This document shows, in pieces, positions 1 through 58,279 of a DNA stretch of 64,000 nt (within the stretch, counting starts at the first letter, position 1; each line of letters begins with the position of its first letter). A program made the translations under genes and the position numbers. The stretch is from contig CM060734.1 of NCBI GenBank assembly GCA_030704615.1, positions 30,008,001 to 30,072,000 of the forward strand, read 5' to 3'. The DNA is from Takakia lepidozioides. Taxonomy: Eukaryota > Plantae > Bryophyta. The notes beneath the pieces are model-generated. The model did no database searches. It was not told where the DNA came from and was given only the letters and a program-made list of their open reading frames with translations.

Positions 1-13
1 TACGGATTGGAGC

Positions 14-1991: not shown

Positions 1992-2250
1992 TGGCAGTGG
2001 ACATGACTGGAGGCAGCTAACAAGACATGGGAGGCCAAGCTCATAGGAGTCAATACATGAGATCCCAAGCTCAAGTTCACAGGTTGTAAGACGGCGACTA
2101 ACGATGGGGCAACTCTTGCACCCGGCCTCTTGATCTATCGAGTTTGAGTGTAGTAGGGATAGTGGTGGAGGACTTAGTGAGGCTATGGTCACTATCACAT
2201 CTTGTGGCTACCTGGACTTAGAGGGACCTAAGCACCAGCTAGGGGGCGAT

Positions 2251-31213: not shown

Positions 31214-31569
31214 TGTCAAGTTAAATAAGCACAGTGTGAAACTAACTAGAATAAAGCTAGTTATTTGTATTTAACACTTGGATTTAGGTCAAGTGTTAAA
31301 TCAGGTGTCAAGTTTAGTTTGACACCTGAACTGTCTTATCTTCACAAGAGCGTCAGTCGCGCAGCTCATCTCTCTCGAGTTGAGCCTGCGCGACCGAGCT
31401 CCTGCATCGTTTAGGACTGAGTGTGCTTATGATGGGAGTATAGGTTGTTGTGGGGTGGAGTCCCCATAGCTTGGGGTGCCCCTGGCTCGACTTTTGTTTT
31501 AACGAGTGATAGCGATGGATTTCATGTTGTTTCTGGTGTGAACAGTGTGTCTCTTAGCTTGTTCTATCA
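31214..31569 (+). repeat. 5' terminal repeat (Y only; no X upstream or downstream)
   Basis: TGTCAAG...TTCTATCA, near-identical to 57623-57983 and 14308-14663. Confidence 0.95.
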
Positions 31570-36335: not shown

Positions 36336-36833
36336 GGGGGCTGCTATTTCATGAGCCATGAGCCATGAGCGGCATAAGCCATGAGCAGAGTCGTAAGTGT
36401 GGAAAAAAACATGAGCAGCACTATTTTCCGGAAATGAGTGTCCGCGGGAATAGGGTTTAGGGTGCCACGGTCATAGGGGGAGAAGGACCTCCCGATGAAG
36501 GAGGTTCGGCAATGTTATTTAGAATTATATATTGAAAGGCAATGTTTCGCGAATGGTAGGGTGGTACTGCTCTGTACAATGGGGGCCCATTTCAGCCTAC
36601 CAGCCATTTGCAAAATTCACCCACACTCCCAATCCCAAACAAAATGAGCAATGACGCATTCTCGGAACAATGGACACAGAATAGAATAAAAAGAGGGCAC
36701 AATGAGGTTTTTATTGATCCACATGAATTGCATTTGAAGCACGTCTACTGTGCTGATTGTGCCCTCAAATCTTGAGCCCTGTGCCTACTGAATACAAGTC
36801 ACGTTGTCAATGGGACTTCGACTGCTCTCAGAA

Positions 36834-37628
36834 CTAGCTCATGAGTCCTGGGGCTCCTCCATGTAAAGTCGATTGCAGCCGTTGTACCGCCCTAGTGATG
36901 TTCACCACAATGTCCTGCCCTTCAATCATACCACCATCGAATATGGAAATCTTCACGTTTTCGTCGTCCACACCAATGCGAATGTCCCCATACAATGGAG
37001 AAGAGGAGCGCACTCCTCGAGGAGAATAGGTCTCTCCGATGGAGTCCACCCACGTCCAGTGGCAGCAGTTCCACCGCAACAGCATAGCAGTGCGCCTTCT
37101 TCTGCATGGGTGACCGTCGTAGCTGGGAAAATCGGAATCGAGGATGCGCAGGAGCCACGGACTCCTCAAACCAAGATCGTCACCCCGCTCGAAGGCGTAG
37201 TGGCCTACGATATACTCAAAAGCCACCAATGTTTCCACAATCGAACCAGTATCTTCTGTGTAATTTGTGTACCAGATAACAATGTCTCCCGATGTGGCCG
37301 AATACATTGCATAATCGATGCCTCCAAAGGGGCAGTCGTCCCGGTTCCGGAAGCACGGCATCCTTGCAAAGGAGGACCTGAGGACGACTTGGATGCCGAT
37401 GACCTTGCGGACAGCTACGAAGCCCTTAGATTTTGGAAATGATACGAAGCGGAAGAGCAGTCCGGCCTCCAATAATGGAGCATCTGGGTCACACGTACCC
37501 ACCGACGGAGGTGGAACGTGTTCATCACGCCAGCGGTGGATGAACCCATACATCTTTCTCATCAACAAGTTATAGTTTGAGATCTGCCACCGAAGTCCAT
37601 CCCCCCGAATGGAAATTCGGCGCCGCAT
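36834..37628 (-). CDS. MULE cargo ORF (264 aa), unknown function; true start uncertain
   Basis: Long complex ORF near the left TIR; no motif recognised. Confidence 0.45.
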   Translation of the reverse strand: MRRRISIRGDGLRWQISNYNLLMRKMYGFIHRWRDEHVPPPSVGTCDPDAPLLEAGLLFRFVSFPKSKGFVAVRKVIGIQVVLRSSFARMPCFRNRDDCPFGGIDYAMYSATSGDIVIWYTNYTEDTGSIVETLVAFEYIVGHYAFERGDDLGLRSPWLLRILDSDFPSYDGHPCRRRRTAMLLRWNCCHWTWVDSIGETYSPRGVRSSSPLYGDIRIGVDDENVKISIFDGGMIEGQDIVVNITRAVQRLQSTLHGGAPGLMS

Positions 37629-38043
37629 TTACATCGAAGAGGGGATGGACTTCGTCGTGTCCAGTGGCTATCGGCCCACCTGGCAGTGACTGCCCATAGT
37701 TTGCATGGCAGGGTAGGAAACTGAAACGGCTACATTCATGCAGCAGCCAATCTTCATCGGTCCAGGATCCTGTAGGGGGGAAATTTAAATGTGCCCTGGA
37801 GTGTTTGTGAGGAATTGCAGCGTTAGCTTGAACTTTTTCCAGCCACCGCGCTGCTCCTCCTCCATCCGGGAGCTGCTGTCATTGAGCGTACTCCGCTACT
37901 CTTTTTCAAGGATGTCGGAATTGGCCCACTGTTTACAATTTGATGTCTCATTTCTACAATGTGTCTGTCCGGATGAATATAGCAGAGTAACCGGTATGTG
38001 AGTCATGTGTCAAGAATATACCAGAGTAACGCCATGTCGGACA

Positions 38044-38780
38044 TCGAAATGCGGCACCGCATTTCGGTGCCGACATGGAAATGCGGCGCCGCATTTCGGT
38101 GCCGACATGGAAATGCGGTGCATCATTTCCGTCCAGGTACACGAAATACCAACACGGGTCTATAAATTGATCAGAAAACGAGGTTGGCATTGCAAATGCG
38201 GCGACGCATTTCCAGCTTGGCAATGGAAACTTCTTTTTGGACAAGGGAATGCGGTGCCGCATTTCCGTACAACACTTCGAAAAGTGTGACATTTCCGACC
38301 AGCGCGATGGAATGCGTTACCGCATTTCCGAGAGAGGGTCTGCAGATGGACAAATTGCGATGTCCGTTCTGGAAATGCGGCGCCGCATTTCCATGTCCGT
38401 CATCGACTTTTTTTTAACAATGGAATGCGTTGCCAATTTTTTGCTGATGGGCCTGCAGTTCGAACAACGACCATCCCCAATACTGAAATGCGGCACCGCA
38501 TTTTCAATCCCGCCATGTCGACCTCCTTGTTCGACCTCGTTGTTCGACCTCTGTAAGCGTGGTGGCATCCATGCAATGAGTGGGAGAGGCCAAAACTGGC
38601 GTGTGGACAAAGGAAATTTTGGAAATGCGGCACCGCATTTCCAATTCAGATTACTTTTTACTATGCCAACATTGAAATGGAAAATTTAGTCCCTCCCCTG
38701 TTTTGGAAATGCGGTGCCGCATTTCGAAAAGAGGTTCTTAGACTTCCCCTGTTTTGGAAATGCGGTGCCCCATTTCCGAT
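38044..38780. repeat. Palindrome array 1: ~11 copies of GGAAATGCGGNNCCGCATTTCC
   Basis: Copies near 38046, 38078, 38193, 38247, 38309, 38370, 38485, 38621, 38705, 38756. Confidence 0.93.
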
Positions 38781-38913
38781 TTTGGGAGCGTCGTGGTTTG
38801 GGCGATTGTGTGGCTGGAATGCACACTGGAGAGGGGTCACGAATGTCGGGCAGAATTTCCTTTATATACTCTGGAAGAGAATTTACATTTACAGAGACTT
38901 CATTAAAATTCTA

Positions 38914-41900
38914 TTAATCTTGAAAATCATCCGAATCCTCATCCTGTTCTAGACTGTCCTGCTCCTCCTCCACCCCCTCAGTGCCTCTCTCATCTCCAGC
39001 GGACTGCTCGTTGGCCAGGCTTTCGAAAATCCCATCTTCCCCTTGCGAAACTGTCCATCTCACCTCCGTTGGGTCGTCTTCCTCCCTGTCTGCGTCGCTC
39101 TCATCCGCTGAATCACATATGTACTTTCGTACCCATCTACCTGTCTGAGCTGCTGCCAACTCTTTCCTTATCCTTCTGTCCTCCCTAGCCCTCTCCAAAA
39201 TCTGCTCTACTTTACTGGGATTCTCACTTCTTCTAATCGCTGTATTTGCGAGTTTAGCTATAACTAGGAAGGGAGTAGTCCCTCACCGGGCTCGTCATGA
39301 AATCGGCCCCGCAAAGAACGGGACATTCTTCCTGGCAGGAAGTGTAGGCCCTACATGTTTCGACCCGGACCCTGCAATCCTGCACATGACAATCATCAAC
39401 GAGACTAATGAGAACCACAGTCGGGAAATTCGTTTGACATAAATGACCCAGAAGGCTTTGCAAACTTACAATGTTTGCACTCACTCGTATTCCGGGTTCT
39501 CCTCCGCATCAATGTCCACTGTGTCTTCCTCGGACTCCGACGAATCCGAGGAGACTTCCGCTCTGTGGGAGCCTTCACATTCCGTTGCAGCCCCTCCAGA
39601 TGGGATCCCCACACGGATGAATCCTCCTCGTAGGCAAAGAGGTGCCGGTCGGAAAACCGCCCAGCCCACATTGAGGCACCTGTTACAATGCCATCCACAC
39701 ATTACCACATGGCGCTTCAGATGTTGCGAACTACATCCTAACGAGAATTTGCAGAACAGCAGAGATCAAGATTCTGCATACCTGTCCCACAGATGAGGTC
39801 GAGCACTGTGCCCTCCACGTCTGTGCATGTCTCCATAATTGTCTGAATGAAGGCAGGGCTCCGAGTCCGTGAGTACCGCAGGGGTTCCGTTGAAGTGAGG
39901 CTATGAGGGAGAAGTTCCTTGGGAACGTTGTTGAACAGAACGTCGTAATCGAGTGGGTCGCAGTTCGGGTCAACCTTTCCTCCCTCCTTCCGGAAAGCAA
40001 AGGTGGAGTTCTCCTTCACAAAGCAGTATGCATCGAACTGCTTCGTCTGCATACACAGGGGGAAAACGATTAGAAACCGAATGCGGCACCGCATTTGAAA
40101 ACACCCAAGCAAATGAAAGGACGAGTGCCAGTGTCGTAATCACCTTCTTCCCTTCCGACCGAAGGCCCAGTGTGTTGATGCACGTCCACTTCTTTTTCAG
40201 AATCGGGACGGCGCTCTTGCGGGTCCACTTCGCAATTCCTGTCTGAGTGTTTTTTCCTCTGCTCGCCAGGACAACCACACAGCCTCTGTCGTCCAACACC
40301 ATGCGGGCAAGCCCGAATCCTTTCTTCCAAAAGTCCTCCGAGTACCTGTTCCAAGATGGCAAAGCTTGCAGTCCTTCCACAGGCTCTCCGTCCGGAATAT
40401 CCAAGATGATCATATCACAAGACCACTCGGTGGCATTTCCGCCCCTCCTACAATCCTTGTCTGCACACACCCTCTCAAAGAACGAGACCATATTCTGAAA
40501 TCCTGGGGTGTCGGTAGGCTCTTCGGCAGTCGCCTTCTTCAGTGCTCTGCCCTTCAGACCCTCCATGGTCTTCAGGTATGCCAACTTGGCTGCCCGTCCA
40601 TCCAAAGCCGCCAAGAAACTCTCATTTACACACTGGACTACAGTTTCGGGAGCCACTTTCGGCCTCTTCATTTCCACCGGCTCGAAAGGGTGCCCCCCTG
40701 GGGGGTTGAAGAGTGCCTTCTTTGCCGAGCCAGTTCTCGTGCCTCTCGTGACAACGGTGGGCACAGGGGAGGCAGCCTGCGTTTGGGGGGGTGGGCTGGT
40801 TGCAAAGTCTCCATCGGAGTCCTCTTCCTCACCCTCTTCCTGAACAGGCTGTTTCTGCTTCTTCGTTTTGGCGGGTGTCACAACAGCTGCTCCTTGTTGG
40901 CGAGTCCTCTTCTTTGACCCCTTCTGTTGGGCCTGCACAGCTGCATCCACCGTCTTTTGTGCCATCTCAGCTGCCTTTCTGGATTCTTCCAGAGCAGCAG
41001 ATTCCTTTGCCGACTTTGGCCCAGCAGGGACACGTCTTTCCTTTCTCTTCTCTTCTGCCAAGGCGTGCAGATCTTTCTCAGACTCGTCAACAATACCGCC
41101 AGACATGTCCAGGTACCACGGGCATCCAACGAGATGCGCGGGATGCCATTGTTTCTGCATCTCGGGTGTGTAGACACAGCTTGGGCCGCCACGGTCGAAG
41201 CCATGAAGAAGGGGGCTCTTGAGCCAGGGCCCCTGTCTGAAGGAGCACGTATTTCATATACCTGCAAGGCAGTCAGCATGCGTGAGCAAAACTTGAGACC
41301 AACCTACTGGCAGAGTGCCACCGAAAACATGAAATGCGAATGCGGTGCCGCATTTCCGAGACAAACCTCGTAACCAGGCTTCACATACAAGGGCAGCTGT
41401 GCTTCACCTGTAAACAATTCGCATTGCAGCTTTCCCCGCTCCCTCCTGATGTGTAAACTCCACGCTCCTTCTTGCTGTCTGTAGCTCTCTGGCGAAAAGG
41501 TGTCCTTGTACGCACATCTGAAACGTGTCACGTAGTCTTCCAATGTCTGCGTTCCATCCCATTTGACGTACAAGCCGAACGAATTTGTGTGCATTACGAC
41601 TTGCTCCTTCGCATTCGACATTACCTGCGATTCCCAAATGCATTGTCACGTAGCAGTTCAGGGAATTCATTTCAGAAAAGCAAATCTGGGGAAGTACCTT
41701 GAATTACCTGGAACCACCAAGTCATGCGGTTGAGCCACTCATCCACTGCAGGGTCGGAAACTTCGAGTGGAAAAGACCACATTGTCCTTATGCTCTCGGA
41801 TGCATTCCAGATCGACAGCCACCGTGTCTGCCATTTCCGATCCAATGTCAGGAGCTGGAAGAGAGTGGCTATTGCTAGGAAGGAACTTCAGTGCATTGAA

Positions 41901-44023
41901 ACCTCACCTTCTCTTTCGCCTCCACACATGCCGTTGAGAGGTGATGCAGTTTCTCCAATTGCATGGTCGGCTGCATGGCCCGAGAATAGTGTTTTGCAAT
42001 CTCGGGGATGAAGTCCTTTCCAAGTGCCGGATCTGCAATTGCCACCAGCTTCACAAGCTTTGACTTGTATTTGGTTCTGGACTTGACACCGGCTTCCTTC
42101 AAGTGCTCAGTCAATGACTGCAACGTTTTGACCTGCCCCTCACTTTCCATGAAGAAGCGTTTGGCATGGGCCAAATCCAGCTTGATGTTTGACTGCCAAC
42201 AAAAACATGCAGAAGCGTTACATTCGATTCATGTGGAAACATTACTGAAATTGGGGAAGGATGAGCAGAGGGAAATTGGAGGACGACTTACTTCGTATAT
42301 CACCTCCACCATTCCATCCATAGTGAGACGATACCATGTCCGGTCTGTTTTTGCAACGGCTTTCTGAATGAGCTCGGGCTCCAGCATTTCCGCAAACATC
42401 TGCGGATCAGTGAGACCAGTTTTCCTCACCCTGTACAGCATGTGTGCCATGTGGGTATGCACGTACGCATTTTAGTGACCCTGCAAGGCACACTCTCCAG
42501 TTCAGTACACGGAAGCACGGAAACAAACCAGAATGGAAACCGAAATGCGGCACCGCATTTCGAACGTGCTAGGGAGGGTATGAGTATCTTACGAGTTGAG
42601 GTCCGCCATGGCATTCTTGAGCAGGGAGGAGTCTGCCGCCTTCACCTTGAGGATGACACACTCCACCATGTAATGCCAGCCAATGTGCTTGGCATGGTTC
42701 TGCTTGATGTACTCCCACCAGGCGAGAAGTCGGTGATTCCCGTCCCACACAAAGAACATTTTACCCGACATATGGCCGAAGTCGGGATCACCCTTCAGCG
42801 TCGCCTCGAATTCGTGGTTGCGAGTGTGCCAGTGGGTATCCCACGTTGACAATTCATCGGCAGTGGGTCCACGAGTTTCGCCGTCCTCATTCTCAATGGA
42901 AACGTAAAACGCTGCCGATCCCAGACGGTACCCTTCTCGAAATGCGAACTTGAGCTTATCCACATCTCCGGGAAGGGCCTGCCTGACGATGGGAAGGGAG
43001 ACCATGCGACAGAGTGGGATTCGAAGAGTCCGCTGGAATACCCTGCTGCCCAGAACTCTGCCAATGCTACTGTGTGTCTCTCCAACATTTTATCCGCTGC
43101 ACTTTTGAAATCCTCCGGAGACATGTCTGTAGGTGCCGGTAGTGGCTGAGCAGCTGGAGCATCCTCAACTGGAGCTGCACTCTGGGGCCTGTCTGCGGGC
43201 AATTCTGCCATTGCAGAGGCCTCCTCCGGGCCTGCTTGCTCATCGGTGGTGAGGTCTTGCTGCGAAAGTTGAGCGGCAGCACCCTCCTCCGGTACCAAAT
43301 CGAGATCAACGGTCGATCCCATTGCCTTCGCTGCAGCAGAGTCGGCCCCAACATCTGCAGGCGGGAAATCCTCCAGGAACTGAGCTTCAGCTCGTGGAAG
43401 CGGTTTTGCGGGAGATTGTTCGCCGTCACCCTGATTGCCTTCTGCTTCCTCATCCTTGTAGGTGAAGGTGTCTGCTGCAATTGAATCTGTCTTCTACCCT
43501 GCTGCTTCATTCGCGTTGGGGGGGTGAATCGGCCTGAGCCGGTTCAGAAGCCAGTAGAGGGACGGGCTGCTTCTTCTTCGACTTTGCTGGAGAAGGGCCC
43601 GACCCCTGCTGGCGATTCTCCATGACCGAAGAACGCGAGTCGATCTCTGGGACTTTGAACTTGCCCTTCGAAGACGCGTCTTTGAATCGCAGTGGGCTAG
43701 GCCCGGCAGGAATACCGCGCTCGGGGATCGGGTGGGTGTACGTGCTGCAGCTAGCTCCTCGGACTCTTCCTGCGGCTCTCGGATTCCTGCGATCCCTCCA
43801 GCACGTCCACCTTCCTGTTAGGCATGCAAACATGTTCTGCATTCAAGTCTCCTAGCATTCAGTCTAAGAATTACAGAAGCAAAATGGGGGGTTCGGTGCT
43901 CGATCAGCTGCGCGCAGCCCGATCGCATGGAGCTCTCACTGGTGGCTGGGTTGCCTGAGTGGCCTGCTGCTCGGAGATGGCAATCTCCTCCTGTAGACGC
44001 ATCTGCTTCCTCCCCTTCGGCAT
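38914..44023 (-). pseudogene. Multi-exon MULE cargo gene: ParB/Srx-like domain + beta-class N4C/N6A methyltransferase-like domain; some frameshifts; outer exons uncertain
   Basis: FFVWDGNHRLLAW (42589-43005); CDMIILDIPDG..GLARMVLDDRGCVVVL (motif IV-VI region); RSPAFIQTIMETCTDVEGTVLDLICGTG spliced to ASMWAGRFSDRHLFAYEED (motifs X-I-II); GT-AG introns. Confidence 0.75.
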
Positions 44024-44454
44024 TGGCCTACGTCCGAAGTATAATTTCCGGAGCTTGCGACGAGGTCTCCTGGCTGGTGCACGAACTCCCCCCCTCTCAG
44101 GTTCGAGCATAAGAAGAACAGAGAGAGGAAAAGGGGCCAAAGAGTGCAGATGGAAAGGGCGCGAGAGGGGTGACTGAGGAGACACGACAAAGTAGATGAA
44201 ACGGCGGTGATGCACCACTTGGGTTCGAAAGGGTGGACGAAAGTGTCTCCTCGGGAGTTTGCGTCATTACGAAATTCGAATCGTTGAGGGTACGCCTGCC
44301 GTCCGAAAAACAAACATCATTATCGAACGGTCAGGCCGCGCCGCCTCATGCCCCTTCAGTCAGATAGAGTGCCGACATGTGCAGCAATTCCGTTGCTCCA
44401 CGTGTTCACATTTCAAGGTATTTCCGTCCCAGCGTCTGATGAGTTGGAGCGAAA

Positions 44455-46147
44455 ATGCGAATGCGGCGCCGCATTTCCGTTAAGTACCATCACTCTGCTA
44501 CACATCCGTACTTGCTGGAAGAAATGCGGCACCGCATTTCCGTTCCACCTTCACATACCTTAGTTTTTGAACGGAAAACGGTGCCGCATTTCCGTCCCAC
44601 AGCTCCAAGTATGAGATTCAAAAGGGAAATGCGGCGCCGCATTTCCGTTCTGGAATGTCGAAAGGTGCGATTGGGACGGGAATGAGGCAAACATTTCTGT
44701 TCCGTGGTTCATGATTTTCAATGTGAACGGAAATGCGGTACCGCATTTCCGTTCCCACTTCACATCCGTTACATGATGAATGGAAATGCCGTGCCACATT
44801 TGCCGTTCGGGAAAGTAAGAGGTCTCACCTGGACAGAAATGCGGTGCCGCATTTCCGGTCGGAAAGTTGAAGGTCTCACATGGATGGAAATGCGGCACAC
44901 ATTTCGTACACAGCTCCAGGCCAATATACAAAACGGAAATGCGGCGCCGCATTTCCGTTAGAATGTCGGAAGGTGCGACTCGAACGGAAATGCGGTGCCG
45001 CATTTTGTTCCCGTTGCGCACGATTTTCAGTCAGAATGGAAATGCGGTACCGCATTTCCGTTCTGTAGAGTATTAACGTCTGACGCTGGCGGAAATGCGT
45101 GCCGCATTTTCGTTCCACAGCTCCATGCCTCACATACAAAACGGAAATGCGGCGCCGCATTTCCGTTTTGGAATGTCGGAAGGTGCGACTCCGACGGAAA
45201 TGCGGTACCGCATTTCAGTTCCGATGTTTCAGGATATTTCATCAGAACGGAAATGCGGTGCCGCATTTCCCTTTTGAATCTAATACATTCCGTTCTGGAA
45301 TGTTGGGAAGGTGCGACTCGGATGGAAATGCGTGCCGCATTTCAGTTCCGATGGTTCACGATTTTCAGTCAGAACGGAAATGCGGTGCCGCATTTCCGTT
45401 CTGGAATGTTGGTAGGTGCGACTCGGATGGAAATACGGTGCCGCATTTCAGTTCAGATGGTTCACGATTTTCAGTCAGAACGGAAATGCGGTGCCGCATT
45501 TCCGTTCTGGATAGTATGAATGTCTCAAGGCGGTCGGAATTGCGCTGTATGAAGCTGTCGGAATCGCACTCGGCTCCATGCATCAGATACAAAATGGAAA
45601 TGCGGCGCCGCATTTCCGTTCTGGAATGTCGAAAAGTGCGACTCGGACGGAAATGCGGTGCCGCATTTCTGTTCCCGTTGTTCATAATCTCAATCAGAAC
45701 GGAAATGCGGTACCGCATTTCCGTTCCACCTTCACATACCGTGCTTGTTGAATGAAAATGCGGTACCGCATTTCCGTTCTGGAGAGTATGAATGTCTTTT
45801 AAGGACGGAAATGTGCTGCAGCATTTCTATCCCTCAGCTCCATGCATCAGATACAAAATGGAAATGCGGCGCCGCATTTCCGTTCTGAAATGTCGAAAAG
45901 TGCGACTCGGACGGAAATGCGGTGCCGCATTTCTGTTCCCGTTGTTCATAAATCTCAATCAGAACGGAAATGCGGTACCGCATTTCCGTTCCACCTTCAC
46001 ATACCGTGCTTGCTGGATGGAAATGCGTTACCGCATTTCCGTTCTGGAGAGTATAAAGGTTTCCCCCGGACGGAAACTCGGTGCCGCATTTCGTCGCTCT
46101 GGTGCATGACCAAGATGCAATACGGAAATGCGGCGCCGTATTTCCGT
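44455..46147. repeat. Palindrome array 2: ~32 copies at ~53-bp period in the divergent intergenic region
   Basis: Successive copies near 45143, 45196, 45249; 45376, 45429, 45482; 45860, 45913, 45966, 46019, 46071, 46124; spacers fall into a few recurring types. Confidence 0.95.
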
Positions 46148-46561
46148 CCACCAGCAATCGAAAGAATCACTCGGGACGGGAAATCTGGAACCTGAATGGG
46201 TTGCATTGTTCCGAAACAACACAATTGCGGCCAGTCTTGATGAGCACAACTTGGTTGTCTGACCGTTTTAACAGCAGTCCTGGCACTTGTCAGTGCGAAC
46301 GTTCCTGTCTGCACCGAGAATACTGCTGGATCCACCCTCAGGAGAAACTGTCAGGAGATGTTATTTCGTCGCCGAATCGGCCATCATTGTCATACTCACT
46401 GGCTATGGAATCAAACCTCCCACCTTCATGCATGTAGCTTGAAACAATACTTTCCACTTCAATGTGCGACTTCCAATCGTCGATGGACTCCGCATGGTGC
46501 CTGTGAGCCTTGGTCTGTCGCTATACTGAACCTCGCACTTGCCAACTCCGTGCGGTGTTCG

Positions 46562-49500
46562 ATGGCTCCGAATTCCTACGCTATAGTTTGCTGTCCTCCG
46601 CAACTTGGGAGAGCCTGGATCCCAAACGAGGGAGGACTTTGCAGAGTGACTGAAACTTACCTTTGTTCCAAATTCAAGCTCAAACCGGGCACAGTTTATT
46701 TGGAAGAAGAAAGGAAGGATGTTCCTGGACAGGTTGACGAGACCATTGTCGTGCTAGGTAACGACGGAGGTTGCGGAATCGAATGGCACGTTCCCCCGTC
46801 AGACACCATCCTGTACCGAGCTGTGGGAATGCCCATTCCCTTTCCGAATCAGTCGCTGCCCACACCATCCACAAAGGAGTCCGGAAACCGACAGGCGGCC
46901 ACTGCCAACAGAGAGGTATGCAACGATAATCATTCCCGACCTGGACCGTCAAGACCCTCCATAGCTTCTCGTGTGGACGTATTCGACATTTCCGACGAGG
47001 AAGATGATTGCATTGAGGTACCCATGTCCTCCACACGGTCGTTCAAATCCGGCATGGACGTCTCTGTAGGTGCTACGCATGTGCCCTCGAGCATAACTCC
47101 AACCCGGTCCATTGTGCAGCTCCTACGACAACATCACCTCGATGGTTCTCGCTCCGAGCTGGCTGCTCTCGACTATGCCAAATTCCCAGTCAGAAAGGTA
47201 ACGTTTCTGCCTCCCGAAGTCGATGGCAATGTCATCTTCGAGTTTCCACCTGTTTCTTCGTCAAAGAAAGCCTCCGGGATGTTAACAGACATGGATCGAA
47301 AGCATGACGGACACCCCTGGTGTGTGACGAAGACCAGTAGCACGAAAATTGCTGATGGTGTTCGTGTACGATATGTCCTCTGTGCGGGGAAGCTGAGGTG
47401 CCTCAATCCCACCTGCTTCCACTTTCTCTCCAAAGGAGGGCGGAGAAACGAGACGGATTGGACTGGCACAACGCATCATCCATTCATTGTCTCCAGCCAA
47501 GCTCCTGCGGGTTCTTTCAAGTGTGCACATTGCAAAGAACCACCGACGTGCATGTCCATGTGCAGAGCCAAGCAATATTACGTAATCCATTTGCTCCCGG
47601 ACTTGACTAGAGCTTGCATACACGTTGGGGTCCACTGCCACCCCTTGGCGAGAGGCAACATGCGTGAGGCTGTGCAGGAAGCACACGACATCATAAAAGA
47701 GGAGGTGAAATTGAGCCCCGGAGCCAGACCAAAGCAGATTCAGCTGAAGGCAGCCCACAAGATTGCTCTTGGCAAAATCATGTCTGAAGATGGTTCCGAC
47801 CGAGAGCCCTTGACCGAAGACGAGATGCGTGACCTCTTGGAGTCCGTCTCGCACGTTTGTAGTCCGAATGTGCGGAATCACATCGTATCTTGCAAGCAGG
47901 AGTTCGGCAGGGGGTCGGACATGTACTCAATCCTGGAGGTGAAACGAATGACTGGATATGACTACATCCAAGGTAGCAGGTTTCCAGGGCAAGGCAGCGA
48001 ATCCGATCGTTGTTACATTTTCAAAATGTCGACGTGTGGGCCTGGGAGTGGAGTCGACTTGGTCACTCGCATGACAACTGGAAACTTGTCGAATGCTTGG
48101 GTGATGTTTGATCACATCAAGCGAATTACAAACCATCAGTGGGTGACTATGGGTGCGCATGTTTATGACTATCACTCCAAGAGGCTCATGACGATTGCAA
48201 TCTGCGAGATGAAAGGGGAGGACACACAGTCCGAGATGCATCTGTGGGAGGGCATAAACGAGCAGATGGCAAGGGCGGGATTGCCAGAGCCCAATTTCAG
48301 GGGATTCATGGCAGACAACGCTCAGGCCAACTGGGCAGCGGTGCGGCGTGTGTACGGTGAGGACCCCAATGTTCCAATGGAGGGGAAAGAGAGATCCTGT
48401 GGATTCCATTGGATGCAGAGTCTATCCCACTACACTACCAAATTTGTTGCTAGCTCATTCCAGGCTGAACACCGTGTCCTTTGTACGGCGTGGAAGGATG
48501 CACCCACATTTGATGACGCGGAGGTTAAGTTTGCTATCATCGAGGCTTGGTGGAACACGTCAGGTGCAGTGGAGACAACCAATCTGGGAGCATTGCACAG
48601 CTGGTTGGGGTGGTGGCATTTTCGGTATCGACAGTTCGGACAGTACATGCGGGAGGTAGGCTGCTGTCATTTCGTTCATTTGTCTTTCTGTTACGGACAT
48701 TTCGATTGGTCCCTCACCATTGTTTGTGTCCTTCTAGGAGCGGTGCTTGGATTCCGACACGGACATGCCGAACACGAATATGGCAGAATCGGTCCACTCC
48801 TCCTGGCGAGCGTCTTCTGCCGCACATCTGGTGGACGTAGTGACGGCCACAACGGAGGACATCGACAGAGCAATCATGCAGCAAGCCACGTACTACAAGT
48901 TCTGAGCGGCAAACAATGGGGCTTTGGGCCGGACAGGGAGGAATTGTTGGTACGAACAGCTTCGAGGTCCAAGAATCCAGTGAAATGGGCGACAGCATTG
49001 CGAGAGAAGATCAAAGGGACGCCTCTGCACCGCAGAGGTGAACACCTAGAGGGGGACGTCCGGACTCGCCCTGTCAGGCGGAGGATTGAAGAGGAACCCG
49101 GGTGCGAAGAGGATTCCTGGAGATCCGACAGGAACATTCGGACAGCACCTCGAGGTCCCGTCATGTTGCCGCACAATGTGTCTTCCAGCAGTGGAAGCCC
49201 AAGAAATTCCAGATCGCCGTCGCCTTCAACCGGGGATTTCGTGCAACAAATTCCCACCGCTCCCTTGCCCCACATTCCGCCCGCTGTTATGCAGTATGGC
49301 CAAGCCATTGTGGAGACGACTGTGTCTGCATCACAGTGGAGAATTGCTCGCACAAAGCCGTCGTTTCGAGGAAGGTGTTCCGCAATTCGTGTGGATACAC
49401 GGCAACGTTGTTTAGAGATGATAAGGAGGAATCCAGATGGGGCTGTCCCTGCTCCTACTTTTACAGGAAGATTTGTCCATGCAAAGTTTGCGGAGGCGAC

Positions 49501-50167
49501 AACCACCCAGTTCTGGTTCTGCAGGCACGACATTATGACTTGCGTGTATGGAAAGCCCAAGTACGGCATACAAACAATGCCAGAGGCTCCCCCGGTGTGG
49601 CCGGTGGAACCAGGCTGCGATCTGAGTCAGGTTGAGGCCGACGCCCTTACCGCCGCAGGATTTCGGATGGTGCAGCGCACTGACGTCCCCAGACAACCAT
49701 TTCCGCTTCCACAGCCTCCACCACCGACCCCTGTGAGAGCAAGAACAATGGGACACGACAGCTCTAAGCATCCTACACACCGTTGGGGGAAACCGAAGAG
49801 GCGGCGACCTCCCTCAAAAGTGAACGAGACAAGGATGGGGAATGCACTTCGGATGAACTGTACAATCCAGAGCTCGACAGAAGTGCCCCCACCAGGATTC
49901 GGGCGTGTGTATCAGATGGCCACGGCGGGCTCAGCTGTTCGCAATGAGGTGTACACCATCACCATTTCAGAATTACCCACCTGCAATTGCACCGACTTCC
50001 AGATCATGGCGAACAAGGGGGCATCATACTGCCCTTGCAAGCATTTGTACTACGTGTACCTAAAGAGACTCCGTTGTAATTCCACAACTCATCACTTCAT
50101 ACATGCACCAGGGTTGAGCCCCCAGGAGGTTCACACTCTTCTGAATATGGATCCAGGGGACCAGTGA
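46562..50167 (+). CDS. Mutator-like transposase: GCM-like Zn domain, MULE DDE core, C-terminal SWIM; intron 48656-48737; apparent 1-nt deletion near 48901
   Basis: HPWCVTKTSS..CAGKLRC..CAHC..HVGVHCHP; VMFDHIKR, FMADNAQA, RSCGFHW, spliced NMAESVH; CNCTDF..PCKH. Confidence 0.88.
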   Translation: MAPNSYAIVCCPPQLGRAWIPNEGGLCRVTETYLCSKFKLKPGTVYLEEERKDVPGQVDETIVVLGNDGGCGIEWHVPPSDTILYRAVGMPIPFPNQSLPTPSTKESGNRQAATANREVCNDNHSRPGPSRPSIASRVDVFDISDEEDDCIEVPMSSTRSFKSGMDVSVGATHVPSSITPTRSIVQLLRQHHLDGSRSELAALDYAKFPVRKVTFLPPEVDGNVIFEFPPVSSSKKASGMLTDMDRKHDGHPWCVTKTSSTKIADGVRVRYVLCAGKLRCLNPTCFHFLSKGGRRNETDWTGTTHHPFIVSSQAPAGSFKCAHCKEPPTCMSMCRAKQYYVIHLLPDLTRACIHVGVHCHPLARGNMREAVQEAHDIIKEEVKLSPGARPKQIQLKAAHKIALGKIMSEDGSDREPLTEDEMRDLLESVSHVCSPNVRNHIVSCKQEFGRGSDMYSILEVKRMTGYDYIQGSRFPGQGSESDRCYIFKMSTCGPGSGVDLVTRMTTGNLSNAWVMFDHIKRITNHQWVTMGAHVYDYHSKRLMTIAICEMKGEDTQSEMHLWEGINEQMARAGLPEPNFRGFMADNAQANWAAVRRVYGEDPNVPMEGKERSCGFHWMQSLSHYTTKFVASSFQAEHRVLCTAWKDAPTFDDAEVKFAIIEAWWNTSGAVETTNLGALHSWLGWWHFRYRQFGQYMREVGCCHFVHLSFCYGHFDWSLTIVCVLLGAVLGFRHGHAEHEYGRIGPLLLASVFCRTSGGRSDGHNGGHRQSNHAASHVLQVLSGKQWGFGPDREELLVRTASRSKNPVKWATALREKIKGTPLHRRGEHLEGDVRTRPVRRRIEEEPGCEEDSWRSDRNIRTAPRGPVMLPHNVSSSSGSPRNSRSPSPSTGDFVQQIPTAPLPHIPPAVMQYGQAIVETTVSASQWRIARTKPSFRGRCSAIRVDTRQRCLEMIRRNPDGAVPAPTFTGRFVHAKFAEATTTQFWFCRHDIMTCVYGKPKYGIQTMPEAPPVWPVEPGCDLSQVEADALTAAGFRMVQRTDVPRQPFPLPQPPPPTPVRARTMGHDSSKHPTHRWGKPKRRRPPSKVNETRMGNALRMNCTIQSSTEVPPPGFGRVYQMATAGSAVRNEVYTITISELPTCNCTDFQIMANKGASYCPCKHLYYVYLKRLRCNSTTHHFIHAPGLSPQEVHTLLNMDPGDQ

Positions 50168-51017
50168 GCTTGGCTTGCGGTCCACATACAATGGTACGCC
50201 CATCCTTTTCGGATAGTAGAACTGTACTGCTGCCAGTACCTCAGACTCTGGCCACAGAAAGGTCCGACATATGTCTTGCCTACCAGTAACCTGTTTTGAT
50301 CGAACTAAGATATTACTATATCGTTCACTTGTTTCCACGTGCATGTATTTTTGTATGTTGGAGGGTTCATGTTTTTCTGCTTTCCGAAAACTTGCTCTCC
50401 TCATTCGACCTCCGACAAGGAAATGCGGCGCCGAATTTCCAAGTATCGTCGTAGGTACCCCCAGAGGCGGCCTTCGCCAACACCAAACCGCTCCGAAATT
50501 TCGCACGTGCGAACCCTAATGCGGCACCCTATTTCCCAGTTCAGTTGCAAACCTTTCCCGCCGAATACCCGAAGAAGACAGAATTGTGAAGTACTGCAGA
50601 CTGTATTGGTGCAGACTCCATTGGTTCAATCGCGGCAAAAGGGTCAGCTTCATTCCAATGTTAAGGCATGTAAAACCGCGGAATACTCTATACAGGCCAG
50701 TATGCGACGTCCTTTTGCAGTGGTATACTGGATTTCCCGTTGCACGGTCACTTATTTCCATGAGCGGATCTAAAAACCATGAGCGGACTTGTTACTGACG
50801 ACATATCTTCGCCGCATTACATGATCTGGAACGTCCAAAAACGGCAAGGTCAAATAAAAAACTATTATTTTAATACTTGTTTAATCTGCCGCATTTCCAA
50901 ATTTGGAGGAGTCCGCTCATGAAATCCGCGTATCTTAGACTTCGGCTCACCGCTCATGCGGCTCATGCGGCTCATGGCTCATGGCTCATGGTTTCTGCTC
51001 ATGAAATAGTAAACCTC

Positions 51018-52500
51018 TTACAGGGGACCTCAATTGCAGAGGCCAGTGGCATCTTTTGCAGGCCAACAGCAACCAGGGGTTGGTAGTTGGACATGGAGGA
51101 CCCAATGTCAAAAGAGATTGCCAGAGAGTGAGAAGGTCGGCACAAGCACAGCCTGCCACGTTGCAGTGTGGGGCATATTGTGGCAAGTATGGGCATGGGA
51201 GATGCCCAGTGATGACTTGCATCCTGAGTTGCGCGCAGGCCGTTCCAAAGGAAACAATGGTGGCGGGGGAAGGTGGACCAGCCCAGAGAGGACGAGGTGG
51301 TCGGGCACGAGGTGCAGGGCAAGGGCAAGCTCAACATGGCCAAGGACGCAGAGGTCAGGGTGTTGACCAAGGCATGGCCAACCGGCTTCAGCAGCTAGAG
51401 CAGAGGCTCGCTGCCATGGCTACAGCTCAGGCGGGTACTGGCTCCCAGGCGGGATGGTCCACCTCCTGCTCCTGAGGGAGGAGGAGATATGGGAGGCATG
51501 GGATTCATGTGCAAAGCAGCACTACCACTAGAGCAGGTGGGAGTCTGCTGCAGCCGTGACTCGAGGAGCAGCACGAGTTCCTGAGCCACGAGGTGCAGAG
51601 GGGTTGGATTGGATCCACAACGTGGGGAGGCAAGCCGTCAGGCGAGCTTCCTCAGTCATTCACATGGCGGAGACAGTGTCGACGCCATCCATGGCACCTA
51701 GTTCTCGCCGACTGTTACCGAGGCGGAGGTTACTATGCCATTGGGAGAGCTACACGTGCAGCACTGACACCTGCTACAAGGCTAGTGCAGCCGGTGTGTT
51801 GTTGGGGGCCAGCCACCTCTGTGTGTCAAGCCCCACTATTCTTGGCAACCATGATTGCGACGCCAGGAATAGACCAGCTGCAGTGTCAGACTAGCAGCAA
51901 CACTCTGTGAGAGTGGGGAGGTCACTTCATCTTCTGCGGAGTTAGTGGAAGGTGTAGTGGCAGAGGGATCCTCGGATTTGAGGGTCAAGACTGCCACGGC
52001 TGCGCCATGGCAAAGCTGCAGCTGCCAGGTTGATGGAGCTGCCAGCTAGGCCAGCCTTTGAGCGCGCCATGGTGACACCTGGAGTTGTCTTGTTAGACAA
52101 CCATGAGGGCATTTTCACTTTGAGTGGACCGGCAGGCAAGAAGTACCGGCCACTGCGGGTCTTGTTGGACTCGGGAGCCCAGCCACTGATGTTGGGCAGA
52201 GCTGCTATTGCAGGTTTGGCCTCATGGAGGCGGATATGGAGCCTGTCCTTTCCAGATACAGACATCTCTGGGAGGATCAGAGCAAGGCTTGGGGCATGAT
52301 ACGGCATCAGTTGGCCATTAGACTGCAGCCGGATCATCTATATAGATGGCTCAGTGATGCGGAGTCAAGGCCATTGTGACAGACCGGTCTCTTACGATGT
52401 CCTCGTTGTGGGGGCAGTGTTATATCCCATGGGCTTCACCCTGGATTTTGGGAGGAGTCAGCATCTACAGGCCTGGATGGCAGTCAGGCGATGGTCGCCG
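51018..52500 (+). pseudogene. Family A gag 3' part and aspartic protease, heavily frameshifted
   Basis: CGAYCGKYGHGRC knuckle-like motif; RVLLDSGAQPLML; YDVLVVGAVLYPMGF. Confidence 0.75.
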
Positions 52501-52895
52501 TGCACAGCTCCCTGTGACATTCATTGGGGGTATTGCGGCTGCCCAGCGGGGCAAGATGCCAACACTAGCCGCCTTTACAGCTGCAGTTAGTTGGCCTGGA
52601 GAGTTGCTGGAGGGCAATGCCCATGCAGAGGATGTGCACATCCAGCAGGAGAGCAAGAGGACATGCATGGTACGGCGGAGTTCCTGCCATGGTTGCTCAC
52701 ACTCCATTGTGGGGTACGAGGTAGAGCAAGGATTGCAGCAGCAGCTGCTGAGGGACGGTGCCAAAGCTTGGGTTAGAAGCATTCGTACCGTCAGGAGAGG
52801 AGGGGAGAGAGAGTGCGGTGACTGCCACCAAGACCACCTCAGTTGTCGCCATTGGATACCACACCTCTTGTGTGGCAGTGCCCGGATGAAGGCAT

Positions 52896-53900
52896 ATGCA
52901 TTTGGACTTGTTGTGGCAGGGATCAGGCATTGGATTGGCTGTAGTGCGCAGGCAGTGTTATGAGTTCGACATTACCTGTATGTGGAGCGGGATGAGACTG
53001 CACGACGTGTTCACTGCGCCGTGTTGCTCAGTTGGTACAGCAGACCCTGATTTGTTGACCAGTGTCTGCAGTTCGTGGATACCAACAAGCCTTGCAGCAG
53101 ACATTTCGTTGTTGGGGGCGCAAGATTTGGAGCAGGTTGGCTCCATTGATCTGGTAGTGGCAGGTTGGCCCTGCCAAGGGCATTCATCAGCCGGGCCATA
53201 GCAATGGATTGCGAAGACTCGATTGACGGTCGGTTTTTTGGGAGGATGATGCGGGTTTGCGACCACTTGCAGCTTCATCAAGCTGTATCTCCAGCATACA
53301 TCTTGGGAGAATGTGCCACTGATGGGTGATTCTCGGGCCAGGTGATGGCCAGGTGCATCAAGTCCGGGCGTTAGGCAGTTGTGTCAGCAGTTGGCTGGAT
53401 TCAGCGATCATGGCTTGGGTCAGCAGTGTTGCTGGATGCAGCTGCAGTGGGGTCACGGGCTCATCGTCCACGACTTTGGTGGACTAACTTGATGCCACCC
53501 GCACTGCTCAAGCGTGCATTTGATGGGGTGCAACGGCCAGCACACCTCACCGTGGATGGCATTTTGGACACATGGAGGCAGTCTCAACGTGTGAGACACG
53601 ATGACCGTTTGCCTTTGGCAGTGGTCAACAGGGTGGGTCAACCACGAGCAGCATTACTACACTGCTCAGTTTCCCAGGATCCCATGCTTTTCGGGATAGT
53701 GGACCTGGCCTCTTGTGGGATGCCACTTGCAACAGTTAGTGGAGCCTAATGCCGACGAGCGAGAGCGGGCTATGGGATTTTCCACTGGGACCACGGCGGT
53801 GCTTCTCTTTCTGAGGCATCACGTCGTCAGGTGTTGGGGCAAGCAATGGATCTCAATTGCTTGACCTGGATTATCAGCTTGGCTATGGCTGAGCAACGTA
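52896..53900 (+). pseudogene. Retrotransposon-borne C5 DNA cytosine methyltransferase (DNMT3-like), frameshifted
   Basis: Ordered motifs: I-like LDLLWQGSGIG; IV IDLVVAGWPCQGHS (WPCQG at 53166-53180); VI PAYIL-ENVP (53307-53318); VIII LDAAAVGSRAHRPRLWWTN; IX EPNADERERAMGF; X RRQVLGQAMDL. Confidence 0.9.
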
Positions 53901-54339
53901 GAGTGCGGAGTGCATTTCCCTTGACAATCTCTCTGCCTACCGAGATGGTACAGGCAGCGAGTGGGGGCGAGCCGGTGAGGACCACGGGGTGTAGACATCC
54001 ATGGCACACGTGGGAGGTACTCGAGGTTCAGAGGGAGTTGGCAGCCAAGGCAGCTGTGATGGATGAGGTTGGGGATTCTTCTCGGATGAGGAGGTTCTCA
54101 ATGATGAGATGATGGGGCAGGATGAGGCCTTGTCATTGACTGAGCAGGAAGGGAGTATTGCTCAAGAGGTTGTAGCATAGCAACCACGGGACGCGTCCTC
54201 TACCTCTAAGCCCACTGGACTTAAGGTTGCAGTTACGGAGGACAATTGGGAGCCTGACATTGGACCCATTGTCACCGGAGGAGAGAGACGACGTATATGG
54301 CGGTTCCTGAGGGCTTACAGGAATTGCTTTGCCTTTAGT

Positions 54340-57275
54340 TTGAAGGACTTGGGAGCACTGAAGGGTCAAGAGATTCGTATTGAGTTGGCCACTGACACGC
54401 CAATCTTTCGGAGACCCTATAGATACAGTGACATGGAGAGGTCTTTGATTCAGATGAGGACTCAAGATTTCTGGGAGGCAGGTTTGGTGGAGCTCTCTGG
54501 TGGAGAGTATGCTTCAGCCACAGTGATGCCAGCCAAGAAGGATGTCTATGGCAATTGGACGGAGAGACGTATGTGCGGTGATTACCGACCTGTAAATCGT
54601 CAGACCAAGTTTGATAGGTATGCCATGCCGACACCAGAGGAGATTTTTGATGCCATTGGGCATTCCAAGGTCTTTAGCACGTTGGATTTACGATCCGGAT
54701 ATCACCAGTTGCCGATCAAGGAGGCGGATAAGCAAAAGACGGCATTTTGGGGGATCAATGAGCATGGGAAGGATTGCCTATACCAGTGGCGGTTCTTACC
54801 ATTTGGGCTTAAAAACGCTCCCGCTGAGTTTCAAAGAGTCATGGACAGGATTCTAGCAGGGGTGGAGTTTGCTCGGTGCTACATAGATGACATCATCATC
54901 TTTAGTGCTACGGTGGAGGAGCATGAGAGACACCTTCAGGGGGTATTTGAGCGCTTGAGGACGCATGGATTGAAGTTACATCCGGGCAAGTGCAAGTTTT
55001 TCCACAACCAGATTGAGTATCTGGATCACATGATATATCCTGGAGGATTGGAGGTACAGCAGACTAAGGTAGAGTCCATTGCACAAGTTCCACGCCCCAC
55101 GGATGTGAGCCGAGTTCGAGCTTTCATGGGGTTAGCAAACTATTACAGACGGTTTGTTAAGGGATTTAGTGCCATTGCAAAGGCTCTAACCAAGCTGACC
55201 AAGGTGGACCAGGAGTGGCAGTGGGAAGATGAGCAAGAACAAGCTTTTCAAGAGCTCAAGGCGAGGTTGACCTCGGCGCCCATCTTGAGACGACCTATCA
55301 GGGGGCGTCCTTTTCAGCTGCATACAAATTGGAGCATGCTGGGGCTTGGAGCGGTGCTCACATAGGTGGATGATGAGGGAAGAGAGTTCGTAGTGGCTTA
55401 TGCTAGCTGCTTGAACAATGCTGCAGAGTCTAAGTATAGCTCATATGAGGGAGAATGCTGAGCTGCAGTGTGGGCCGTGGCACACTTCAGGTGCTATCTA
55501 TACGGCAATCTCTTCACCCTTGTCACGGATCACCAACCACTCAAGTGGTTGATGAAGTCAGACAAGCTTACGGGGAAGCTTGCAAGGTGGGCACTCATCC
55601 TTCAAGAGTATGACTTTCAGGTGGTGCATCGACCGGGTTTGGTCAATCGCAATGCAGATGGGTTGAGTCGCAATCCATGCACGAGCCAGCAGGATGACAC
55701 TGGAGCTCGGTGGCATGGTGAGACGGACGAGGAGATGGTGCCCGGATGGCATGCATCTGCATTTCTGTGTATCTTGGCAGCGGAAGGCCAGGTTGGACCT
55801 GCAATAGGGATGACTGTAGATCAAGTGTCTGAGGACCCTGAGGCCAGCAATGAGCAAGGTGACGCCAAAGATATACATGAGGATTCAGTTGTGTTGGACT
55901 ACCTCCGCACTGGAGACACTGCAGCCGCTGTGATTGCCAAGGAGAGGGATCGGATCCTACAACGAGCCAAGAGGTTCAAGTGGGAGGGGACACACCTGCT
56001 CCGAGTATGGGAGGATGGTCAAGTGAGGATTGTGCCTCACCCAACACAGCGGGCACGGTTAGTGCGGCATGCCCATGAGGAGTTGGGGCATTTTGGGGTG
56101 CGACGCACTCATAGTCTACTGCAGGGGCAGTATTGGTGGCGTGGTATGCACACAGAGGTGCAACAATTTGTGGCTAGGTGCATGGTGTGTGACAGGGTGC
56201 GTGCTTCATTCAACGCCCCTACTCCACAATTGCACCATCTTCCGATCATGGGATTGGGCTACAGGTGGAGTCTTGACTTCGCAGGGCCATTGCCACTGAC
56301 CATGCGTCACAACAAGTACGTGTTGGTGATGGTGGAGCACTTCTCCGAGTGGATTGAGTTGGTTCCATTGCCTGATAAGGCTAGTGAGGGAGCTGCGTAT
56401 GCATTCTTGGATTGTGTGCTTAGCCGATTCGGTGCTCCAGCTGAGGCGCTCACGGACCAAGGGAGAGAGTTCTTGGGGGAGTTTCAGGCTTTGTGTGACA
56501 AGGCCTTGATAGACCACCGCACCACTTCTCGGGATCATCCTGAGGCCGATGGCTTGGCAGAGAGAGTTGTTCAGACAGTAAAGAGGGGTTTGCGCAAGTA
56601 TGACTTGCAGAAGGGACACCTAGGAGATTGGGACCTTCAGTTACCCTGGTTAGCCATGGGCTACAGGTTCAGCAAGCAAGCATCACTTGCCTCCTTCTCA
56701 CCATACTTTCTTCTCTTTGGCCGAGAGCCGGATTTGCCTGCATCCATTTGCAGAGAAGCTGCTGCAGTTTTTAACCTTGACGATCCGGACGTGTGGGCAC
56801 ATGCATGTGAGCAGCGTGCAGAGTTGTTCAAGAAAGTCATGCCCATGGCTTTCGAAAACCTTGCCATCGCACAACACCGTGATACGTTGAGGTATGCTAC
56901 CATACGTGGTGGGGAATATCGTCCTGGGGTTCGGAGATTCAACCCTGGTGACTATGTTTACCTGCAGCAGACTGCTCCTACGACCTTGGATGTGACTGCA
57001 TGACGTGTTATTTTGAGGGTCGAGATGGCATAACTTGGAAGGACCATGTGCGTAATTGTGCGCCATGTCACCTTCCGAATGTCGATGGCAGGATTGACCC
57101 AAACCTGGCAGTGGTATCTGCAGGTTTGAGGTGCATGTTGTGTGGGTCTGCTAGAGGGGCAGCCACCATGCTGGTGTGTGATCGATGCTCTAGAGGTTGG
57201 CATATGGGCTGCTTGACTCCACCTCTTGAGATGGTTCCGGATGGGGATTGATTATGTCCACAATGCATTGGATAG
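54340..57275 (+). pseudogene. pol: Family A pol: RT, RNase H, integrase, PHD finger; stops at 55363 and 57249, deletion near 57003
   Basis: LDLRSGYHQ, LPFGLKNAP, YIDDII; integrase and PHD match copy 1. Confidence 0.95.
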
Positions 57276-57535
57276 TGGGAGTGGATACAACCATGGGAGG
57301 CTAACAAGAAATGCAAGGCCAAGCTACTAGGAGACCTTGAACACACGAGATCCTGGCTCAAGTTCACAGATTGCAAGACGGCGACTAACGATGGGGCTAC
57401 TCTTGTACCCGGCCTCTTGGTCTTTAGAGTTTGAGTACAATAGGGACAGTGATAGAGGACTTAGTACGGTTGTGGCTATTACATCTTGTAGCTATCTGGA
57501 GTTAAAGGGACCTATCCACCAGCTAGGGGGGCGAT

Positions 57536-58069
57536 TGTGGCAGACTACTTTATTGTGCATATATGTGTGGTGTGGTTTGGACAACGATGTAGTTGTGTAG
57601 CGATACGTATGCGCACGACAGTTGTCAAGTTAAATAAGCACAGTGTGAAACTAACTAGAATAAAGCTAGTTATTTGTATTTAACACTTGGATTTAGGTCA
57701 AGTGTTAAATCAGGTGTCAAGTTTAGTTTGACACCTGAACTGTCTTATCTTCACGAGAGCGTCAGTCGCGCCGCGCAGCTCATCTCTCTCAAGTTGAGCC
57801 TGCGCGACCGAGCTCCTGCATCGTTTAGGACTGAGTGTGCTTATGATGGGAGTATAGGTTGTTGTGGGGTGGAGTCCCCATAGCTTGGGGTGCCCCTGGC
57901 TCGACTTCTGTTTTAACGAGTGATAGCGATGGATTTCATGTTGTTTCTGGTGTGAACAGTGTGTCTCTTAGCTTGTTCTATCATTGTGGCAGACTACTTT
58001 ATTGTGCATATATGTGTGGTGTGGTTTGGACAGCGATGTAGTTGTGTAGCAATACGTATGCGCACGACA
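57536..58069 (+). repeat. 3' split terminal repeat: X1 57536-57620, GT (GC in other copies), Y 57623-57983, T, X2 57985-58069
   Basis: 85-bp direct repeats flanking Y; preceded by AGGGGGGCGAT. Confidence 0.95.
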
Positions 58070-58279
58070 CACACTCTATCCATGCTCATTTAGGAAAAAA
58101 TAGGGAAAAACTCTAACAACAGGGAAAAACGGGCTGAAATGTGTTGAAGAAGGTACCTTCATTAGCAGCGCCTTGTTCTAACAAATGCACTGCTGCCGCT
58201 GTTGTTTCCAGTTGACCATCTACCCACGTAGCTTTCTTGTAGCTATTGATCCGCAGGGAATCAGAAGTAATCTTGTGTT

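Follow-up and report, generated by a model that had tools for sequence, protein, structure and literature searches.

A Gag-linked DNMT3-like cytosine methyltransferase in a Ty3/gypsy retrotransposon family of land plants with split terminal repeats

Retrotransposons that carry an enzyme with which their hosts silence them pose an unsolved puzzle, and those described so far come from algae in which genetic work is difficult. The closest described element is KnitGypsy-Dnmt3 of Klebsormidium nitens, reported by de Mendoza et al. in 2018 (PMC5890265), which combines gypsy domains and an unrearranged DNMT3-like domain (DNMT) under purifying selection with DIRS-like split repeats, A1 and then B-A2-B, and in which the DNMT lies in the same open reading frame (ORF) as reverse transcriptase (RT) and RNase H. 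The enzyme gave no de novo methylation in yeast, a result that the authors call inconclusive, and they raise both insertion-site effects and host benefit (PMC5890265). SymbioDIRS-Dnmt3 of Symbiodinium is likewise a retrotransposon with a DNMT3 and split repeats; it methylates CG de novo in yeast and is without CpG depletion, but it uses a tyrosine recombinase and is described as an independent acquisition (PMC5890265). Ngaro/PAT-like retrotransposons begin with A1 and close with B1-A2-B2, the same layout, and also use a tyrosine recombinase (PMC9210276). EpiLTRs of Cymbomonas and Euglena are LTR elements with a cytosine methyltransferase and a chromatin reader, although their enzyme is accompanied by a DAM domain and a chromodomain, has DNMT4 as its sister and is described as distinct from Gypsy-DNMT3 (bioRxiv 10.64898/2026.05.21.726589).

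The element described here shares with KnitGypsy-Dnmt3 its gypsy domains, its unrearranged DNMT3-like domain, the purifying selection on that domain and the split repeats. It differs in its host, a land plant rather than an alga, and in a conserved stop that separates the DNMT from RT. Unlike SymbioDIRS-Dnmt3 and the Ngaro/PAT-like elements it has a DDE integrase, and unlike the latter it has TG...CA ends and 4-bp target duplications. A kind of element known from algae is extended to land plants, in a variant that has a Gag-linked DNMT and unusual ends. No report of such an element in land plants was found in a literature search outside which lay most subscription journals, the supplements of bioRxiv papers and the main one of PMC5890265. 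In their accessible text, PMC12344493 and bioRxiv 10.64898/2026.05.21.726589 cite Gypsy-DNMT3 as streptophyte, a term that may cover land plants, none of which is named there. The three supplements of PMC5890265 that could be searched make no mention of Marchantia, ‘PHD’ is absent from its main text, and ‘KnitGypsy’ was found in no other paper searched. The words ‘PHD’, ‘methyltransferase’ and ‘Marchantia’ are absent from PMC6317226, which treats the REXdb gypsy clades Chlamyvir, Tcn1, Phygy and Selgy, and no element-borne DNMT is mentioned in the accessible text of work on plant transposons or on methylation in hornworts and Marchantia.

The window, the whole stretch of DNA analysed, comprises 64,000 nucleotides of a Takakia lepidozioides contig. 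The element occupies positions 31214-58069 of its + strand, minus a nested 14.7-kb transposon, and has split ends of the form A-internal-B-A-B around the domain order gag, protease, RT, RNase H and DDE integrase that is found in Ty3/gypsy. It begins with repeat A1 (31214..31569, TG...CA), which is 97.8% identical to A2 (3 mismatches and 1 gap in 356). The 5′ part of gag (35475..36335, one frameshift near 35976) was located by tblastn with Marchantia protein P0011 at 55-60% identity and is 67% identical to P0279; its broken 3′ part (51026..52011) was recognised by tblastn with P0011 and by translation. The DNA transposon inserted between them (36336..51017, no strand assigned) is bounded by terminal inverted repeats and by a target duplication of 8 bp (or 9 bp), and we take it to be MULE-like by a SWIM-type motif recognised by eye. 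A broken aspartic protease follows (52012..52450, LLDSGA at ∼52160; tblastn with P0004, P0011 and P0002), with 11 frameshifts in 51903-52793. Downstream of the DNMT, RT and RNase H (54181..55650; PF00078, E 7e-31; PF17919; PF17917) are free of frameshifts, with stops at 55363 and 55459. The integrase (56041..57000) has an H2C2 zinc domain (PF17921, E 1.8e-16) and a DDE core (PF00665, E 8e-13) with its core residues visible, and ends in a PHD finger (57130..57265; PF00628, E 7.6e-8) with a stop at 57249, as a reading made from the sequence alone had proposed. A purine-rich tract (57525..57534), present before B in related loci also, lies directly 5′ of repeat B1 (57534..57620, 97.7% identical to B2), which is followed by 2 nt, by A2 (57623..57983, from self-comparison) and by B2 (57983..58069, likewise, ending in ACGACA). 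All of these features other than the nested transposon are on the + strand. The leader between A1 and gag (31570-35475) measures 3.9 kb versus ∼1.2 kb in moss loci, and its 212-codon frame (33917-34552) gave no Pfam hit. The nested transposon contains a 1307-codon stop-free frame (46244-50167) with a SWIM-like motif at its end and no Pfam hit, together with a palindromic ∼23-nt repeat in ∼32 copies, many of which are spaced at 53 nt.

The DNMT (52843..53899, + strand) was read by frameshift-aware alignment of window positions 52840-53910 with the intact relative P0005, with which it shares 232 of 325 aligned residues (71%). The alignment score is 967, versus 36-42 for five shuffled sequences and 39 for the reverse complement. 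C5 methyltransferases have a standard motif numbering, and by it the motifs of the window copy stand in the unrearranged canonical order: I (damaged, 52902), IV (GWPCQG, 53163), VI (ENV, 53307), VIII (RAHRPR, 53456), IX (ERERAMGF, 53757) and X (LGQAM, 53834). In a six-frame reading they are scattered across the three + frames, between LLDSGA of the protease and RT. The sequence-only reading had reported just this order on the pol strand, and it was equally right that the copy is frameshifted: the domain has 11-13 frameshifts and is also broken by two stops, at 52961 and 53224. A check against PF00145, which it had proposed for a family consensus, gave E 0.0043 for a single unbroken piece of the window domain, which is below the cut-off, and the cut-off was passed by eight of nine relatives scanned. 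What the window holds is a dead member of a Ty3/gypsy family with many copies.

Several comparisons support assignment of the enzyme to the DNMT3-like class. The best match of P0005 among solved structures is DNMT3A (E 6e-12), and a profile built from 64 family sequences ranks DNMT3A (1e-26) ahead of DRM-type enzymes (1e-15 to 2e-12), HhaI (1e-9) and DNMT2 (7e-5). A predicted model of P0005 (pLDDT 92.6, from alignment-based folding; a single-sequence fold reached only pLDDT 34) also matches DNMT3A best, with E 2.5e-19 and a TM-score of 0.84 by target length. The ranking by similarity and predicted fold, as distinct from a tree with host DNMT3s, thus places the enzyme nearer to DNMT3 than to DRM, DNMT2 or bacterial enzymes, in line with the class first proposed for it. 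Across the 64 diverse sequences, the catalytic cysteine and glutamate vary little or not at all, and this is also true of the arginines of motif VIII. Host DNMT3 genes of plants have the same type of catalytic domain and occur in non-flowering streptophytes, but they have a C-terminal DUF3444, as described in PMC6453930, whereas the retrotransposon relatives sit in gag-protease ORFs; no DUF3444 was hit by Pfam among the relatives scanned.

Searches with a 124-residue unbroken piece of the window domain returned 34 longer relatives, and P0005 as query returned 58, the named ones being from Marchantia polymorpha, Calypogeia fissa, Sphagnum fallax, Mesostigma (Mesvir1), Chromochloris (Chrzof1) and Haematococcus; 269 representatives at 50% identity score below 1e-30. 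The presence of land plants among these species, along with a DYW domain (30727-30891; PF14432, E 1.1e-21) and PPR-like motifs in the window itself, agrees with the earlier placement of the element in a land-plant genome. At 80 metagenome loci, which come mostly from one moss family in repeated assemblies and are not independent, the proteins resemble the Sphagnum relative and the order is gag-protease-DNMT-RT-integrase-PHD wherever the contig reaches. Both the end of the DNMT and the start of RT are contained in 52 of the 80 loci, in the same order each time. A sequencing run with close relatives yielded 53,768 contigs on window positions 52700-58150 with all 30 of 30 bins covered, and a 5-kb contig from another run is collinear over the DNMT and RT. 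Viral contigs gave no match. These observations support the conclusion that the DNMT belongs to the family and is no one-off insertion. Of the two outcomes that the sequence-only reading had named as refuting it, a lack of HMM matches and a domain confined to this copy, neither was obtained.

The same holds for selection. Between two subfamilies, dN/dS of the DNMT is 0.14-0.17 (316-319 codons, five of five pairs), with 0.24-0.35 for the protease and less than 0.08 for RT; pieces of the window DNMT give 0.03-0.13. Inside the moss subfamily the ratio is 0.44-0.94, as expected for dead copies. The comparison across copies that had been proposed for this domain thus supports purifying selection on the DNMT.

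Trees of the DNMT and of RT divide the relatives in the same way. In the DNMT tree, all 28 of 28 proteins of the protease-DNMT type fall on one side and all 90 of 90 of the RNase H-DNMT-integrase type on the other (support 0.996), and the RT tree separates 10 from 50 proteins (support 0.99). The trees were made with FastTree and midpoint-rooted with no outgroup, so they give no direction for the move of the DNMT; the window DNMT is not among their sequences, and near-duplicates were dropped (45 of 222 DNMT rows and 55 of 146 RT rows). Named members of the RNase H-DNMT-integrase sister group are chlorophytes, and many members have a PHD finger. Among its elements P0062, P0065, P0069, P0077 and P0084 each have the DNMT between RNase H and integrase and also have a PHD, the named ones being chlorophyte, and three of the five show a further conserved-looking C-terminal region. 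The nearest named proteins in the RT tree are from Marchantia, and the K. nitens RT KFL_015370020 (48% identical), a protein known here from its RT alone, falls on the side of the window family. The family most likely belongs to the same streptophyte lineage as the Klebsormidium element, as opposed to being a new acquisition, and it may descend vertically from the KnitGypsy-Dnmt3 lineage, K. nitens being represented in the comparison by this RT and by the published end layout.

The position of the enzyme within the coding region had been given as inside gypsy pol. That description stands insofar as the DNMT lies between protease and RT on the same strand, but it fails in one respect, which is that the DNMT closes the gag-protease ORF ahead of a conserved in-frame stop and is not in the RT-bearing ORF. 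In the window, the stop is a TAG followed by CAA CCA (54178..54186, + strand), a codon position shared by related loci. The reading frame is kept in 38 of the 52 linkers between DNMT end and RT start, and in all 38 of these the stop falls at one shared codon. Among distinct loci, TAG or TAA occupies this linker codon in 42 of 46 and is then followed by CAA in 41 of 42. Annotated Marchantia ORFs of 1278-1281 aa also stop 70-80 residues past the DNMT. Since deeper-branching relatives such as P0101 run from protease through DNMT to RT with no stop, the window family is a variant and not the typical streptophyte Gypsy-DNMT3.

The conserved stop before RT is probably read through, to judge from the sequence that surrounds it. 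CAR YYA after UAG is the readthrough signal of tobacco mosaic virus (PMC2754532), and TAG CAA CCA of the window fits that signal. In the related loci the stop is followed by CAA CCC in 37 of 42 and by the full CAR YYA hexamer in only 2 of 42, so that in the majority of moss copies the signal is short of its final base, which leaves some room for RT-RNase H-integrase being made from a spliced or separate transcript, with the DNMT still linked to Gag. Splicing between gag-pro and RT has a precedent in Ogre elements, and the gene models of Marchantia P0011 and Sphagnum P0058 join the DNMT to RT and omit the end of the linker, presumably because introns were predicted there. Against such a transcript, the 38 linkers contain one stop and are in frame before and after it, and three subfamilies that are close to saturation at synonymous sites all retain CAA after the stop. 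We regard splicing as unlikely and readthrough as the better account.

We propose that the first ORF would make Gag, protease and the DNMT3-like methyltransferase, and that readthrough of the conserved stop would add RT, RNase H and the PHD-tipped integrase. By its place in the coding region, the DNMT would be made at the level of the capsid protein Gag, which predicts many enzymes per particle; it would be packaged and then released by the protease, and its substrate may be the element's own cDNA inside the particle. The benefit could be protection from host nucleases or deaminases, or arrival in a pre-silenced state. To this reading as a whole, namely a first ORF of Gag-protease-DNMT, a stop that is read through and a capsid-level enzyme that likely methylates its own cDNA in the particle, we assign a probability of about 0.55. 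CpG depletion as a footprint of self-methylation is absent, since the ratio of observed to expected CpG is higher in the family (0.47-0.53) than in four other gypsy segments of the window (0.12-0.27).

The PHD finger has a place in this reading as well. The best matches of a homologous PHD in the PDB are KMT2C/D, CHD4, KDM5B, PHF21A and UHRF2, several of which bind unmodified H3 tails, and in 52 of 61 PHDs among the fetched proteins a glycine and an aromatic residue precede the histidine. PHD fingers are known in Chlamydomonas gypsy elements. By this resemblance, the finger may bind unmodified H3 tails and steer integration away from active (H3K4me3) promoters. A chromatin-reading integrase would also suit a DNMT whose target is chromosomal DNA, whether during integration, later or in trans, and which marks the insertion site or silences copies so that the host is harmed less. 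Such an enzyme, made at Gag level, could be present in excess, and insertion-site effects and host benefit are the possibilities already raised by de Mendoza et al. (PMC5890265). However, a domain fused to Gag-protease would be packaged with the RNA, and in the chlorophyte sister elements the DNMT lies between RNase H and integrase, in the polyprotein of RT, which points to a replication intermediate. Chromosomal DNA is accordingly an improbable main target.

A further reading dispenses with methylation of the cDNA: the domain would be kept for binding of DNA, RNA or SAM, or would methylate RNA or only the CAGCTG junction between B and A, guiding the choice of end site by the integrase. The inactivity of the Klebsormidium enzyme in yeast (PMC5890265) and the lack of CpG depletion in the family are in its favour, as is the junction itself, a symmetric CHG site that reads CAGTTG, CAATTG or CAGCTA in other copies. 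The junction changes are explained equally well by host CHG methylation, and the near-invariant catalytic cysteine, glutamate and motif VIII arginines tell against a role in binding or at the junction, which is quite improbable.

Frameshifts are distributed unevenly along the window copy, with 24 in positions 51900-53900 (∼2 kb, protease and DNMT) and none in the next 2.2 kb of RT-integrase. Although this density might suggest that the DNMT is a separate insertion or a passenger limited to this copy, that reading is refuted, with next to no probability left to it, by the relatives, by the order shared among the 52 loci and the collinear 5-kb contig, by purifying selection and by DNMT and RT trees that divide alike. 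Measured against another copy, substitution rates differ little between the frameshift-rich and frameshift-free segments, and homopolymers show no excess of breaks (the longest run averages 2.33 versus 2.24). As a check for assembly error, sequencing runs searched at 99% likeness gave only pieces of ≤82 nt.

The ends of the element depart from those of an LTR retrotransposon. Two complete direct LTRs are absent and the window has A...B-A-B, a departure common to KnitGypsy-Dnmt3. No tyrosine recombinase was hit among the ORFs scanned, a DDE integrase being present instead, and with a DDE integrase 4-bp duplications are expected. The 4-bp target duplication is exact in seven of ten related loci with both ends, has one mismatch in two and is missing in one. 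No tRNA gene was found in the window and no primer-binding site was identified. The 2 nt between B1 and A2 are GT in the main element and GC in three sister copies of the window, where the B1-A2 junction forms the palindrome CA-GC-TG. This sequence suggests that the functional LTR may be B-GC-A and that the integrase may cut inside it. Both products predicted from such an internal cut are seen among related ends, A-internal-B in 15 of 18 and A-internal-B-A-B in 3 of 18, although the short form could equally arise by B-by-B recombination. The mirror product, with B directly before the gag-proximal A, was seen at 0 of 22 such A starts, versus the 3 of 18 ends with a B-A-B tail. Simple symmetric cutting of a 2-LTR circle, which predicts B before the 5′ A, is disfavoured by this count. 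Extra bases occur at the A2-B2 junctions of two related loci (L063:14227-14515 and L044:10497-10971); in L063 they are the first bases after A1, as at end-joined LTR-LTR junctions.

A broader account joins these parts, and we offer it tentatively, as one that may well prove wrong. One ancient gypsy lineage would have carried a DNMT3 from chlorophytes to liverworts and mosses, would have shifted the enzyme, once located between RNase H and integrase, to a place behind Gag-protease, under a leaky stop that loads particles, and would integrate by cutting an internal CAGCTG palindrome, as from a circle, and not at the ends of a linear copy; with its unbroken ORFs, Marchantia would then be a genetic model in which to test what such a DNMT is for. 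Bryophytes contain the family in abundance, and annotated ‘hypothetical’ ORFs of ∼1280 aa occur in Marchantia polymorpha, with all six motifs in five of nine Marchantia proteins checked. Methylation mutants, methylomes and RNA data already exist for Marchantia and could be used to test the purpose of a retrotransposon DNMT. Such ORFs could also confound counts of DNMT3 in bryophyte genomes. The combination of split ends, a DDE integrase and 4-bp duplications points to an unusual end-processing step, and LTR finders would miss an element of this form.

Further members of the family lie elsewhere in the window. A sister copy, 88.8% identical, is represented by its 3′ part (1..2926, + strand: RNase H, integrase, PHD and B-A-B tail), its DNMT region being beyond the window, and a third, more distant member, present as its 3′ end and tailed by B-GC-A-B, is found at 5942-6903 (− strand). 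A rearranged A/B remnant (14056..14956, − strand) was recognised by its flank sequences and self-BLAST. Its 4-bp flanks are CACA and TCCC, those of the main element TCCC and CACA, and this swap suggests inversion of the 16-kb segment 14957-31213 between two copies by ectopic recombination. Within the remnant, 14148-14667 is an inverted fragment that reads tail-B-GC-A and then CTCG, the bases that come after A1, a join that a one-LTR circle or copies arrayed in tandem would be expected to show. Other gypsy elements, at 11507-13679, 18019-22865 and 60250-62869, form inverted pairs, are strongly CpG-depleted and have no DNMT hit. Decayed PPR repeats occur at 28900-30900 (+ strand) and 58280-59020 (− strand), and one set ends in a DYW domain with a C-terminal EYW.
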